Below are positions 35,017 to 59,425 of a stretch of 64,000 nt of DNA, piece by piece. How positions within the stretch are numbered: the first letter of the stretch is position 1; each line of letters begins with the position of its first letter. The position numbers were made by a program, and so were the translations under genes. The DNA is taken from the sequence record KT454806. One strand, given 5' to 3'. The stretch is from Escherichia phage SUSP2. The notes beneath the pieces were generated by a model. The model had not been told where the DNA came from, searched no databases, and was given only the letters and a program-made list of their open reading frames with translations.

Positions 35017-35039
35017 GGGCTGCTTCGGCAGCCTTTTTT
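35017..35039 (+). terminator. rho-independent terminator
   Basis: GGGCTGC-ttcg-GCAGCC plus TTTTTT. Confidence 0.7.
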
Positions 35040-38477: not shown

Positions 38478-39260
38478 ATGGGTATTGTAAAAGTCATCAA
38501 AGGGGATATCTTCACAGACTTTGAAAAAGGTAAGTTTGATATCATCGGTCACGGTTGCAACTGTATGAATCTGATGGGTGCAGGTATCGCTGACAAGATT
38601 TCTAAGGGTTATCCAAAAGCCTATGAAACTGATGCTGAAGTCTACCGTGTAGCAGGAGGAAGAGAGCATAAACCTTGTCAGAAACTGCTTGGTAAACTCT
38701 CTGTAGCACGTCTTAAACAAGGTCGTATTGCTAACCTGTACACTCAGTTGAAGACTGGTAAAGATGCTCGCTACGATGCTCTTGAGAGTGCTCTGTTGAG
38801 CCTTAACCAGTACTGCAAAGTAAATCAATTGAAGAAAGTTGGTCTTCCAATGATTGGTGCAGGGATTGGTGGACTTGACCCGAAAGCTATTGTGGTGATT
38901 ATGAATCACATCTTGAAAGATGTTGATGTTTATCTTTACGTGTTTGAAGAGGCAATGTTTAATACTCTGTCAACATGGGGTAATCACAGTGAACCACAAT
39001 ACTTTGCAGGTGTAGCCGTTGTCAACGAAGACGGAGTTACCCTCTTCAGGCATCGTAAGAACAAGGTACATCGGAGTAACCCTCCGGTTGAGCGAATGTC
39101 TCTAAGTAACGCTCAAGTTACCCCGCCGTTGAAAGGAAGTATGCAACGTGCAGTGACATTTGGAAGTGAGCCTGATGTGTACATTCTTGCAGCAAATGAG
39201 AAAGATGCTGAAGCAATTGTAGACATTTCTAATATCAAGTTCTTAGCTGCAAAGAACTAA
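38478..39260 (+). CDS. macro domain protein (ADP-ribose binding/processing) with C-terminal extension
   Basis: VKVIKGDIFTDFEKGKFDIIGHGCNCMNLMGAGIADKI and GLPMIGAGIGGLDP match macro-domain glycine-rich loops. Confidence 0.7.
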   Translation: MGIVKVIKGDIFTDFEKGKFDIIGHGCNCMNLMGAGIADKISKGYPKAYETDAEVYRVAGGREHKPCQKLLGKLSVARLKQGRIANLYTQLKTGKDARYDALESALLSLNQYCKVNQLKKVGLPMIGAGIGGLDPKAIVVIMNHILKDVDVYLYVFEEAMFNTLSTWGNHSEPQYFAGVAVVNEDGVTLFRHRKNKVHRSNPPVERMSLSNAQVTPPLKGSMQRAVTFGSEPDVYILAANEKDAEAIVDISNIKFLAAKN

Positions 39261-39332
39261 GAAACTCTGTAGCATATTCACAATAGACTAAGCCTTTCTT
39301 ATCTGGTAAATTTTTCAGGTAAGGAGGGCTTT

Positions 39333-39515
39333 TTCATTTTAAAATTGTGCAGGTAAAAGTCTGGACAGAAATCTGTAGAGAAAATTTTGAACTCCAAAGG
39401 GAAAATTCATTTTCAATTTGTGCAGGTGGACTCCAAAGAGCTTTTTCATTTTCAAAACGTGCAGTCCCGGCGAGTGTCGGGCAAGAAAAATCATTTTAGA
39501 ATTGTGCAGGTAGAT
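39333..39515. repeat. array of at least four direct repeats (cattttNNaaNNtgtgcaggt), iteron-like
   Basis: Copies at about 39333, 39405, 39444, 39491, with a degenerate copy near 39597. Confidence 0.55.
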
Positions 39516-39528
39516 AGATAGTACCAGC

Positions 39529-39565
39529 CCTGCCCCTCTCCCCCTCTTACTCCCCCTCTCCCCAA
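39529..39565. repeat. homopyrimidine C/T tract
   Basis: ccctgcccctctccccctcttactccccctctcccc; unusual in AT-rich context. Confidence 0.6.
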
Positions 39566-39683
39566 AAGTCAAGAGAAAAATCTGTAGAGAACTGAAAAAT
39601 AATTCTTGATTTGTGCTATGTTTTGTGGTAGTCGTGTGCCCGTTCCTCTCTGGCAATCCCTGAAAATATTTTTAAAAATTTGC

Positions 39684-39712
39684 TTGACCTGCAAAACAAA
39701 GTTATTTAGTAT
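39684..39712 (+). promoter_or_regulatory. sigma70-like promoter heading the small-gene array
   Basis: TTGACC, 17 bp, TAGTAT. Confidence 0.5.
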
Positions 39713-39761
39713 CTGCATCAGACGGGCAAACAAGCCCACTTCCTAAACTGGAGATTCAAAA

Positions 39762-39968
39762 ATGTTATATCAACGTGAGTTAATGATTGTAGATAACACT
39801 GAAACAAAACATCGTCGTTTTTATATGCTAATTTGTGATGTGTGGCAACGTATATCAGAAAAAGATTATGATACATATGTAAACACGTCAATTAATTCAG
39901 ATTGTTACTTGACAACTCACACAAGAAAGCATATTAGACATACTGCAATTTATTATTATGACGTTTAA
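39762..39968 (+). CDS. small protein, array gene 1
   Basis: 68 aa; preceded by conserved leader cctaaactggagattcaaaa. Confidence 0.5.
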   Translation: MLYQRELMIVDNTETKHRRFYMLICDVWQRISEKDYDTYVNTSINSDCYLTTHTRKHIRHTAIYYYDV

Positions 39969-58110: not shown

Positions 58111-58187
58111 CTCCGTTTAGCTCAGTTTGGTAGAGTGCGCCGTTTGGGGCGGTGAGGTCGAAGGTTCAATCCCTTCAACGGAGACCA
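58111..58187 (+). tRNA. tRNA-Pro (anticodon UGG)
   Basis: Hand-folded cloverleaf: acceptor ctccgtt/aacggag, anticodon loop tttgggg, T-arm gaagg-ttcaatc-ccttc, encoded CCA. Confidence 0.75.
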
Positions 58188-58194
58188 AATTAAT

Positions 58195-58272
58195 GTTCCA
58201 GTAGACAAATTGGTAAAGTCACCACACTTTCAATGTGGAGTTTTGAGGGTTCAAGTCCCTTCTGGAACGCCA
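58195..58272 (+). tRNA. tRNA-Glu (UUC)
   Basis: Acceptor gttccag/ctggaac, anticodon loop ctttcaa, CCA. Confidence 0.75.
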
Positions 58273-58355
58273 AATTTGACAGAAGACCAAGTACAGCAAA
58301 TAACTTTACTTTTCGCGCATAGAAAACTTAAAAGTTTGGTCTGGTCATAAAAGTT

Positions 58356-58432
58356 CGCGGGTATAGAGAAAGGGCGTCTCACATGTCTCATTAGCATGGT
58401 ATCGGCAGGTTCGACTCCTGCACCCGCCTCCA
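58356..58432 (+). tRNA. tRNA-like gene, anticodon CAU (Met/Ile2/fMet undetermined)
   Basis: T-arm gcagg-ttcgact-cctgc, anticodon loop ctcatta; 1-72 mismatch and unusual discriminator. Confidence 0.4.
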
Positions 58433-58514
58433 AATTTGCAGAAGACCGTTTACAGCAATCTCAAAAATTTTTATCGGAAAAAATGAAAAGATACGGTCTG
58501 GCAATACTAAACAT

Positions 58515-58591
58515 GGTGAGGAAGCACATAAGGCATGTGCGGTCGGCTGTTAACCGAATGGTATAGGGTTCGAATCCCTAACTCACCGCCA
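58515..58591 (+). tRNA. tRNA-Asn (GUU)
   Basis: Anticodon loop ctgttaa, T-arm taggg-ttcgaat-cccta, CCA. Confidence 0.7.
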
Positions 58592-58651
58592 AGATTTGGG
58601 AGAGAAGCGTAATGCTCACCGATTTGTAAGGTGCAAGTCCTTAGCCTGAAT

Positions 58652-58739
58652 AGAATAAAATGCGTCGTTATCCCGTAGATGGAAGCGGTGGTGACTGTAA
58701 ATCACTTGTCATTATGACTCGGTAGGTTCGACTCCTTCA
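58652..58739 (+). tRNA. tRNA-Tyr (GUA), long variable arm
   Basis: Acceptor gcgtcgt/acggcgc, anticodon loop ctgtaaa, 88 nt. Confidence 0.65.
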
Positions 58740-58745
58740 CGGCGC

Positions 58746-58823
58746 ACCAAATAAAGGTTATGTAGTTTAATCTGGTTAAAATACTCCCCTGTCACGGGAG
58801 ATGATGAGGGTTCGAATCCCTTC
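58746..58823 (+). tRNA. tRNA-Asp (GUC)
   Basis: Anticodon loop ctgtcac, stem ctccc/gggag, CCA. Confidence 0.75.
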
Positions 58824-59261
58824 GTAACCGCCAAATTTGAGAGGGCTTTTTAGCCCCTCCCTTAAAGAGTTCTTACGAGTATTCTTTAAAGGAGCAGAAG
58901 ACCAAATTCAGCAAGCCAACTTAAAAAATTTCAAGCCAATTTAATTTTGAAAAATTTAAAACTTGGTCTGGCTCAACAAATTTACAGAAGACCGTTTACA
59001 GCAAGTATAAAACAATCTATTTCTCTGGTAAAGAAAAGGCGAAGGTTCGATTCCTTCACACGTTACGGCGTGTTGGTGTAATGGTAGCACTTAAGATAAA
59101 ACAACGGTCTGGTAATCTTCTTTGCAGTGACTTATGGAGCTAAATGCCGTCCCATGAGTGCCGATGAATTTCCTTAGCATGATTCTAGATTAGCTTAATA
59201 GGAAATGACTCTACAAACCCTTTAGCAAGGTTTGCGTAGGTTACTGCAAAGATGATTTAAT

Positions 59262-59337
59262 GGGAGTGTAGCAGAATGGTGATGCGGCAGACTTTTAATC
59301 TGACAGGCGACGGGTTCGAATCCCTCCACTCCTACCA
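59262..59337 (+). tRNA. tRNA-Lys (UUU)
   Basis: Acceptor gggagtg/cactcct, anticodon loop cttttaa; weak T-stem. Confidence 0.6.
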
Positions 59338-59343
59338 AATAAT

Positions 59344-59420
59344 GGTTCAGTCGCAGATAAGGTAATGCAAGGGTTTCATAAGCCCTATGAATGTGGGTTC
59401 GAATCCCATCTGAACCTCCA
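59344..59420 (+). tRNA. tRNA-Met-type (CAU)
   Basis: Acceptor ggttcag/ctgaacc, anticodon loop ttcataa. Confidence 0.65.
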
Positions 59421-59425
59421 ATTAT

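Follow-up and report, generated by a model that had tools for sequence, protein, structure and literature searches.

An iteron-like array of direct repeats at the edge of the small early gene region of Escherichia phage SUSP2

Organization of the intergenic region

The DNA that was analysed is a stretch of 64,000 nucleotides from Escherichia phage SUSP2 (sequence record KT454806), referred to below as the window. Between positions 39261 and 39761 it contains a gap of 500 nt without a conserved gene, and within this gap lies the array of four direct repeats that is the subject of this study. The array was found to be a genuine, selected, non-coding cis-element, and its repeats are iteron-like. 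A 2.6-kb query around the site matched 253 phage records; the best matches, at approximately 95% identity, were Escherichia phages EP1, EcSzw-2, EcSzw_1 and mistaenkt and Salmonella phage PC79-13. On these sequence relationships the window is placed in the Ounavirinae, the Felix O1-like myoviruses, whose genomes are 84-91 kb.

A macro-domain gene, the final gene of a long + strand unit, borders the gap on the 5' side and a series of small early genes borders it on the 3' side, with the repeats and the flanking genes all on one strand. Read 5' to 3', the gap contains an intrinsic terminator, the four direct repeats, a pyrimidine tract, a conserved block and a promoter with an upstream (UP) element. 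The GC content falls from approximately 0.41 to approximately 0.35 exactly at the array boundary. The features of the locus are listed below.

38478..39260, + strand: macro-domain protein gene (annotated phosphatase, Tk.4-like); Pfam Macro PF01661, E 2e-7; PHROG 335 'phosphatase', E 2e-99
39290..39331, + strand: intrinsic terminator, 17-pair stem and 8-nt loop, then TTTCATTTT; terminator scan and RNA fold
39320..39355, + strand: repeat unit 1; core TCATTTT aaaatt GTGCAGGT from 39334
39361..39382, + strand: second motif, the 'B box'; TCTGGACAGAA then ATCTGTAGAGAA, within a 34-nt insert separating units 1 and 2
39393..39428, + strand: repeat unit 2; core from 39407
39432..39467, + strand: repeat unit 3; core from 39446, deviant 3' end GTGCAGTC
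39477..39512, + strand: repeat unit 4; core from 39491, orthologue of Kolesnikvirus unit 3 (GGTCKGGCAAGAAAAATCATTTT)
39528..39563, no strand assigned: variable cassette form A, a pyrimidine-rich tract; 34/36 pyrimidines, mirror repeat
39564..39609, + strand: highly conserved block AAAAGTCAAGAGAAAAATCTGTAGAGAACTGAAAAATAATTCTTGA; column conservation 0.89-0.95, repeat families D2 and D4
39662..39678, + strand: UP-element-like A/T block; 16/17 match to AAAWWTWTTTTNNAAAA, column conservation 0.94
39684..39712, + strand: sigma-70 promoter P39684, the first of the terminal small-gene array; TTGACC-17-TAGTAT
39724..39737, + strand: hairpin GGGC-aaacaa-GCCC in the 5' untranslated region (UTR), just past the predicted transcription start of P39684
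39762..39968, + strand: first small early gene, 68 aa; open reading frame (ORF) list, Shine-Dalgarno sequence GGAG at 39750-39753, PHROG 5293 (unknown function)

Anatomy of the repeat array

When up to two mismatches were allowed, TCATTTTNNAANNGTGCAG gave four matches in the 64 kb, at 39334, 39407, 39446 and 39491, all on the + strand; the number expected from shuffled sequences was 0.34, and none of 100 shuffles reached four. The window contained no further copy, and in a complete relative, Felixounavirus LF110P2 (87,144 bp), the exact core was confined to the four array positions. The initial annotation had described at least four direct repeats at a spacing of roughly 40-50 bp. Four repeats are indeed present, but their start-to-start distances of 73, 39 and 45 nt are not uniform, and the literal 21-mer that it gave matched only two sites, with three mismatches each, because it was shifted by one base relative to the true register.

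Constraint extends over approximately 36 nt, from -14 to +21 (+1 being the T of TCATTT), around the core TCATTTy-N6-GTGCA. The consensus, built on 73 distinct units from 33 distinct arrays (GenBank, IMG/VR and metagenome loci), reads T c n R R a g R G n W W W W TCATTTy n R R W t t GTGCA g r t a. Every one of these units keeps TCATTT and GTGCA; positions -11, -10, -7, +8 and +9 are always purines, and positions -4 to -1 and +10 are always A or T. The centres of the two invariant blocks are approximately 12.5 bp apart, roughly one helical turn. Units differ in their A/T tract, which is TTTTT in some and AAAAW in others, and occur as the variants GTGCAGGT and GTGCATAG; copy 3 terminates in cgtgcagtc instead of tgtgcaggt. 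Units 2 and 4 are one mismatch from the distal UP consensus, and the gap holds eight such matches compared with 0.29 expected.

Two near-matches to the motif, at 35038 and 35111, were rejected as a terminator tail and signal-peptide coding sequence, respectively. Apart from the array, the only place that partly resembles a repeat unit is the segment 35016-35070, 3' of a rIIB-like gene, where a terminator is followed by TTTTTTATTTGTGTTTTGTGCAG and then by a TATAAT hexamer; this resemblance was judged to be due to chance.

The array is accompanied by a second repeated motif. In most genera units 1 and 2 are separated by an extra 34 nt that carries the motif TCTRTAGAGAA, of which the Felix O1 version of the B box has two tandem copies, and the motif reappears 3' of the variable cassette. 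The duplicated boxes noted in the initial annotation were confirmed: AATCTGTAGAGAA occurs exactly twice, at 39370 and 39579, and the two copies extend to a 28-nt repeat with 86% identity (family D4). The conserved block 39564-39609 thus includes a third B box, at 39579-39591, and a degenerate unit-like segment (39594-39616) begins within it. Family D2 ties the repeat units to this segment and to a second degenerate copy, 39661-39683, which adjoins the -35 hexamer of P39684. Conservation of the GTGCA block in these proximal degenerate units was absent from the alignment of relatives. An autoregulatory inverted half-iteron across the -35 hexamer (I2/I6/I7) was also considered and was rejected as lineage-specific, since it is not kept in relatives.

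Conservation and distribution of the array

Column conservation across 39300-39460 was 0.92-0.98 in an alignment of 19 phages, in which codon positions 1, 2 and 3 of the macro-domain gene scored 0.92, 0.94 and 0.83. The array is therefore considered to be under selection, because it is conserved at least as well as the first and second codon positions of the neighbouring gene, whose protein shows just 64-70% identity among the same phages, and above the third. It is present in Felixounavirus, Suspvirus, Mooglevirus and Kolesnikvirus (33 distinct arrays), so that the absence of the repeats from relatives with the same gene order, which would have spoken against a functional element, was clearly not observed. 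Two more distant macro-domain loci (L224 and L225) lacked the array and were uninformative.

The spacing of the units differs between lineages. Four units are spaced at 73/39/45 nt in Felixounavirus (21 arrays) and at 75/41/45 nt in arrays of the Suspvirus and Mooglevirus type (four arrays); in the Erwinia and Hafnia phages of the genus Kolesnikvirus the four units are strictly tandem, with no spacer, at 37/37/39 nt; and a Si3-like lineage has three units at 75/45 nt.

The segment 39406-39508 aligns by BLAST at 75% to the Erwinia and Hafnia phages, and the array is among the few stretches that can still be aligned to Kolesnikvirus at the nucleotide level. The promoter modules between the small genes also align to Kolesnikvirus, at 80-90%, and in the comparison with LF110P2 the tRNA genes and some coding stretches were better conserved than the array. 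In a published tree the midpoint root falls between Kolesnikvirus and the remaining subfamily (PMC8594841). Since the array aligns to the Erwinia and Hafnia phages and the root lies between these and the rest, it is probably ancestral to the Ounavirinae.

In IMG/VR the two-unit pattern was found on 28 contigs, 23 of them of 84-94 kb and the others shorter and partial. Paired-motif scans of viral, bacterial and metagenome collections recovered true relatives only on Ounavirinae contigs of 73-93 kb and their fragments; among metagenomes and one genome per bacterial species, matches outside Ounavirinae-like contigs were chance matches only. Four contigs of IMG/VR metagenome 3300045988 (L089, L134, L139 and L151; three of approximately 89 kb and one of 51.6 kb) end approximately 100-200 nt past the array. 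These ends are probably assembly breaks at which a segment common to co-occurring strains gives way to a variable cassette.

Literature searches returned no report of transcription start sites, of an origin or of these repeats in the Ounavirinae. Some promoters and other direct repeats, of at least 24 bp, are catalogued in the Felix O1 genome paper, which does not include this array and describes the temporal control of transcription as unknown (PMC3185647).

Coding potential and RNA structure

The region was judged to be non-coding because indels between genera disrupt every ORF that GenBank records place there. An ORF at 39347-39499 on the + strand, annotated as 'gene 13' in wV8 and as ORF32 in Felix O1, was rejected on account of 2-nt and 4-nt indels between genera. 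Indels of the same sizes in relatives break the frame of the minus-strand ORF 39339-39656, in agreement with the earlier suspicion that this ORF was spurious.

There was no Rfam match to the array region at E values up to 10. A structured non-coding RNA was likewise rejected: no fold was seen beyond the terminator, the RNAalifold energy was negligible (-8.4 kcal/mol, with a positive covariation term), and a conserved fold was absent. Fold z-scores were +0.09 for the minus strand and +0.75 for phiEa104, and the terminator was the only significant structure.

Pyrimidine tract and variable cassette

Between unit 4 and the AAAAGTCAA block lies a cassette (39513-39563) that differs between relatives. 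In the window it takes form A and contains the most pyrimidine-rich 36-mer of the 64 kb. A tract is present as first described, although not as a pure C/T run of 37 nt at 39529-39565: it is 36 nt long, occupies 39528-39563 and is interrupted by G at 39532 and A at 39549, giving 34 pyrimidines, and 39564-39565 are A. It includes a perfect mirror repeat with 14-nt arms (CCCCTCTCCCCCTC and CTCCCCCTCTCCCC) and a TTA spacer, which is an H-DNA motif, and its complement on the minus strand is the sole canonical G-quadruplex match in the window (four or more runs of at least three G, with loops of 1-7 nt).

Form A is shared by Felix O1, wV8, SUSP1 and Moogle and has a C-rich counterpart in phiEa104, and on account of this distribution it looks ancestral but replaceable. 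In approximately half of the aligned Felixounavirus loci its place between unit 4 and the AAAAGTCAA block is taken by an unrelated form B (GGTAGGTGGGTGCAGGTGGGGATGTCGCC...). Form B was detected in 140 GenBank records, nearly all with 95-100% identity. The initial annotation had treated the homopyrimidine tract as part of the core architecture, which this replacement does not support. Form B is G-rich on the + strand, opposite to form A, and a metagenome variant (L246) is even more so. An R-loop origin was considered as a unifying model and rejected, since G-richness switches from the minus strand in form A to the plus strand in form B and a leftward promoter is absent; no model uniting the two forms was found.

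Terminator, promoter and early-gene modules

The terminator closes the upstream macro-domain gene, and its T-run forms the 5' part of repeat unit 1. The alignment shows it to be conserved, the stem having another sequence in Suspvirus and Mooglevirus.

A promoter scan recovered the TTGACC-17-TAGTAT promoter described previously, with TTGACC at 39684-39689, a 17-nt spacer and TAGTAT at 39707-39712. TTGAC is invariant in six phages from four genera. The A/T block that matches the UP-element consensus lies a short distance upstream of its -35 hexamer. The promoter aligns with repeated TTTACA-17-TAGTAT modules further downstream, one before each small early gene (40095-40240, 40560-40700, 40905-41045, 41550-41645, 42575-42715, 43395-43540 and 44345-44475). 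In each module the TTTACA-17-TAGTAT promoter lies within a GGGG...CCCC hairpin, which is followed by CAGATAAAGAG and then by a common 5' UTR, CCTAAACTGGAGATTCAAAAATG; the modules correspond to the 57-bp direct repeats of Felix O1 (PMC3185647).

No promoter-like site was found by the scan in 39100-39683 on either strand, and inspection revealed no TAnnnT at the proper distance from any repeat unit. The units were therefore rejected as a class of promoter: they lack pairs of -10 and -35 hexamers at 16-18 nt spacing, and elsewhere in the genome the motif does not occur. The hairpin at 39724-39737, which is replaced by a different one (GGGGAGGgaatgacCCTTCCCC) at the same spot in relatives, may act as a 5' mRNA stabiliser.

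Proposed function of the array

The array is most likely a cis-acting docking site for a DNA-binding protein. Four repeats in the same orientation at a single site are the classic signature of iterons bound by an initiator or regulator, as at lambda ori and in iteron plasmids, and the clustering expected of such repeats is seen here, with four + strand copies within 180 nt. We infer that several copies of one sequence-specific protein, either phage-encoded or a conserved host protein, would bind side by side on the four repeats, each unit providing an asymmetric site of approximately 36 bp, in which the two invariant blocks are flanked by an obligatory A/T tract and a purine-rich block. The spacing of approximately 12.5 bp between TCATTT and GTGCA would suit a protein that reads the two invariant blocks with two DNA-reading heads, and the presence of four sites at one genomic place suggests an oligomeric assembly.

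Several features argue for action at the level of DNA. The A/T tract is either T5 or A4-5, both of which are A-tracts in a duplex and very different as RNA; a strong terminator lies directly 5' and no promoter feeds the array; and RNA structure is absent. The array is situated just past the terminator that would end a long early/middle transcription unit and 170-350 bp 5' of the first strong UP-element promoter, and a complex bound there could turn this boundary into an organising site present once per genome. The preferred, tentative reading is that the array is an origin or initiator-loading site, at which the neighbouring promoter, and perhaps the non-B-DNA cassette, would help to open the duplex. 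This reading is slightly favoured over control of a transcriptional boundary.

The initial annotation had proposed a replication origin or a master early control region bound by a multimeric protein. A selected cis-element with iteron-like repeats agrees with that proposal, but the origin-specific checks gave no support to an origin, and further observations weigh against one. There was no lasting GC-skew turn at the array, the skew being positive on both sides, although skew is of limited value as a test in phages because it follows transcription; the skew analysis suggested at the outset revealed only a local dip at 39250-39999, which is caused by the CT tract itself. The AT content of the gap (0.63-0.66) is barely higher than that of the window (0.60), and its only very AT-rich block, 39661-39683, also serves as the UP element. 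Matches with up to one mismatch were at background in the gap for both DnaA boxes (one compared with 1.2 expected) and IHF sites (one compared with 0.9 expected), with no exact match to either, and no initiator-like domain was detected by Pfam or PHROG in the neighbouring proteins that were scanned. The spacing is neither regular nor helically phased (73/39/45, 75/41/45, 37/37/39 and 75/45 across lineages), and such irregular, genus-variable spacing argues against helically phased cooperative binding. The whole 37-nt period is constrained with no free spacer, which is unusual for iterons and more like functional RNA repeats. On our reading the replication genes of a close relative look like a T7-type set, and T7-type replisomes classically start at promoters, not at iterons. 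Finally, the promoter modules nearby are likewise kept across genera, and the array may therefore owe its conservation to contacts with host RNA polymerase instead of an initiator. In the annotation of the close relative the DNA primase/helicase and DNA polymerase genes lie 25-30 kb away, and no initiator is named.

Among known systems, iteron-type origins (lambda ori with its four O-protein sites; P1, F, R6K and pSC101; T4 oriE) share with the array the clustered, same-orientation copies of an asymmetric motif, the non-coding or regulatory, promoter-adjacent site and the A-tracts. Iterons are 17-22 bp long at a spacing of about two turns, whereas the units here are approximately 36 nt, with no free spacer and with irregular, lineage-variable spacing, and the site lacks a clear AT-rich unwinding element, DnaA and IHF sites and a recognizable adjacent initiator gene. 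An iteron-like array is thus a familiar kind of element; the unfamiliar particulars are the contiguous units of approximately 36 nt, their variable spacing, a location just past a terminator and bordering a terminal early module, and the swappable non-B-DNA cassette.

Possible control of transcription at the boundary

A possible, if doubtful, alternative is that the array serves as an operator or as a boundary of transcription. Occupied by a protein on all four units, it would act together with the terminator to insulate the terminal early module from read-through, and the bound protein may also switch the first and strongest early promoter by looping or by spreading to 39594-39616 and 39661-39683. 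The position of the array, exactly between a strong terminator and a near-consensus UP-element promoter, fits this arrangement, as does the fall in GC content across the site; family D2 links the units to the degenerate copies, the second of which adjoins the -35 hexamer, units 2 and 4 are UP-like, and conservation across genera extends to further regulatory modules of the early region. However, a distance of 170-350 bp between units and promoter is long for a sigma-70 operator. The motif is missing from more than ten promoters further downstream in the module, so that a regulator bound at the array would control one promoter only. The GTGCA of the proximal degenerate units is not conserved, and the inverted partial copy over the -35 hexamer is lineage-specific.

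The upstream activating regions of rrnB P1-type promoters, with UP element and Fis sites, offer a presumed parallel: P39684 has a near-consensus UP element, the array lies 5' of a strong promoter, and units 2 and 4 look like a distal UP half-site with one inserted C. The units differ in that they keep an invariant C and GTGCA, which UP elements lack, lie 170-350 bp upstream, too far for contact with the alpha-CTD (the C-terminal domain of the RNA polymerase alpha subunit), and fit the Fis consensus inconsistently. A loose Fis-type pattern gave a single palindromic match, at 39378-39392 between units 1 and 2, and by eye none of the units fitted the Fis, CRP, sigma-54, sigma-E or MarA-box consensus sequences.

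Possible action at the RNA level

It is unlikely that the repeats act as RNA. Transcripts that read through the terminator would then carry four tandem modules of approximately 37 nt, which would act as decoy or sponge towards a nuclease or RNA-binding protein of the host. Examples would be a pseudo-antitoxin comparable to phiTE pseudo-ToxI, or a sponge for Hfq or RNase E. The strict, spacerless 37/37/39-nt tandem of Kolesnikvirus suggests such a role, a period of approximately 37 nt being within the size range of type III antitoxin repeats, and constraint over the full unit with strand-specific purine-only positions, together with the location of the array on the same strand as the flanking genes, is also consistent with it; a conserved host target would account for conservation across genera. 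Against this, a strong terminator lies 5' of the array, which has no promoter of its own, the exchange of T5 for A5 between units would hardly be compatible with a role as RNA, and neither a conserved secondary structure nor an Rfam match was detected. No ToxN- or AbiQ-like gene was found by Pfam among the downstream proteins. A host cognate of the repeats, as in a type III toxin-antitoxin system, was rejected, since the paired-motif scans of metagenomes and of one genome per bacterial species found no cognate array in enterobacterial genomes and gave chance matches only outside the Ounavirinae.

Type III antitoxin RNAs (ToxI, CptI, TenpI, antiQ and phiTE pseudo-ToxI) resemble the array in being coding-strand tandem repeats of approximately 36-40 nt in which every position is constrained. 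The likeness is clearest in Kolesnikvirus (37/37/39) and less so in the window (73/39/45). Here, in contrast, a terminator precedes the repeats, whereas in antitoxin loci it comes after them and before the endoribonuclease toxin gene, an additional 34 nt lies between units 1 and 2 in most genera, and promoter, toxin gene, Rfam match, fold and host cognate are all lacking.

Genome end and proposed roles in DNA entry and packaging

The position of the array relative to the genome end was assessed by homology with Pr103Blw, which has a 581-bp direct terminal repeat (DTR).

46510..47100, no strand assigned: homologue of the 581-bp DTR of Pr103Blw; 79% identity, DTR annotated at both ends of MW481326

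The Pr103Blw DTR was determined with PhageTerm (PMC8303462). Its homologue, at which the + strand small genes and the - strand genes meet, probably represents the physical end of the genome, as judged from this similarity. The array is approximately 6.8 kb from it in a genome of approximately 87 kb, and the first base of many GenBank records lies 6.4-8 kb beyond the array, consistent with an end at 46510-47100. The start of the UAB_Phi87 record maps to 62419, inside the tRNA cluster, which conflicts with the Pr103Blw-based end; the UAB_Phi87 paper reports a 608-bp repeat (PMC4837284). In record OR125561.1 (Erwinia phage BoyaciRG1; L200 and L201) the start and the end are identical over 1232 bp, array included, and these ends are probably an untrimmed assembly overlap and not a true terminal repeat. 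The tRNA cluster itself comprises 25 tRNA genes on the + strand at 58111-63578.

By analogy with the injection stop signal (iss) of phage T5, the array could be a checkpoint of DNA entry, at which transfer would pause so that the terminal 7.8% or so of the genome enters and is expressed first; a protein bound to the array would hold back the remaining DNA until an early product released it. Both parts of this proposal are distinctly improbable, and it is position that argues for them. The homology-mapped end makes the small-gene array the last approximately 6.8 kb of approximately 87 kb, with the repeats at its inner edge, and the record starts 6.4-8 kb past the array fit the same end. The T5 signal is a conserved non-coding stretch, rich in repeats, that adjoins the inner limit of the DNA transferred in the first step; this DNA makes up 7.9% of the genome, close to the share of the small-gene block here. 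The signal is defined by eight DnaA boxes and palindromes (bioRxiv 10.1101/866236). The array resembles it in being non-coding, rich in repeats and conserved across a phage group, and in lying on the inner side of a terminal set of small early genes that amounts to about 8% of the genome. It differs in that there is no array of DnaA boxes (near-matches are at background, with no exact box), the few inverted repeats are short and mostly lineage-specific, and the site is not inside a long terminal repeat: the T5 site lies within a terminal repeat of approximately 10 kb, whereas the repeat here is approximately 0.6 kb and located elsewhere. Two-step transfer in Felix O1-type phages (Ounavirinae) was not found in the literature, and the UAB_Phi87 record starts at a different place. 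If correct, the proposal would imply a second, mechanistically different T5-like first-step transfer, without DnaA boxes, in phages widely used for typing and therapy.

A genome terminus or pac site at the array was rejected, as the annotated terminal repeat maps 6.8 kb away. Several direct repeats at a place unique in the genome are shared with the lambda cosB and the SPP1 and P1 pac sites, but a packaging (pac/cos-type) terminase recognition site is extremely improbable, because the array lies approximately 6.8 kb inside the homology-inferred end. The terminal repeats reported for the group, moreover, are approximately 581-608 bp long (PMC8303462; PMC4837284).

Hardly any more credible is a functionless relic of tandemly duplicated, UP-like promoter-upstream segments, which the resemblance of the units to the A/T block 5' of P39684 (family D2) would suggest: the array is conserved above third codon positions and equally to first and second positions, and the invariant blocks are kept in all four units and in four genera.

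Relevance of the array

Felix O1 and its relatives are classic Salmonella typing phages and are common in therapeutic and biocontrol cocktails. An array that is kept from Erwinia phages to coliphages offers a concrete, mutable handle on origin firing, on insulation of the early module or on DNA entry, whichever applies. It also delimits, on the inner side, the putative host-takeover block at the genome end, which is useful for engineering and likewise for annotation, since spurious ORFs have been drawn across the array in several GenBank records.

Neighbouring genes and other observations

The macro-domain protein shares just 64-70% amino-acid identity with its Felixounavirus, Suspvirus and Mooglevirus homologues. 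None of the small + strand proteins scanned downstream, from 39762 onwards, had a Pfam domain, and those compared with PHROG all fell into families of unknown function; we read this small-gene array as a 'host-takeover' module in which every gene has a strong promoter of its own.

The window contains no GATC site, compared with 198 +/- 13 in dinucleotide-preserving shuffles of positions 1-64000, and GATC, a target of the Dam/MboI/DpnI type, is thus completely avoided.

A counterpart of the Felix O1-type region studied here was also present, at 128687-129190 and 85% identity, in the 147-kb record GU169904.1, named 'Staphylococcus phage SA1', and one Campylobacter-named record was matched as well. 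Both records look chimeric or contaminated.

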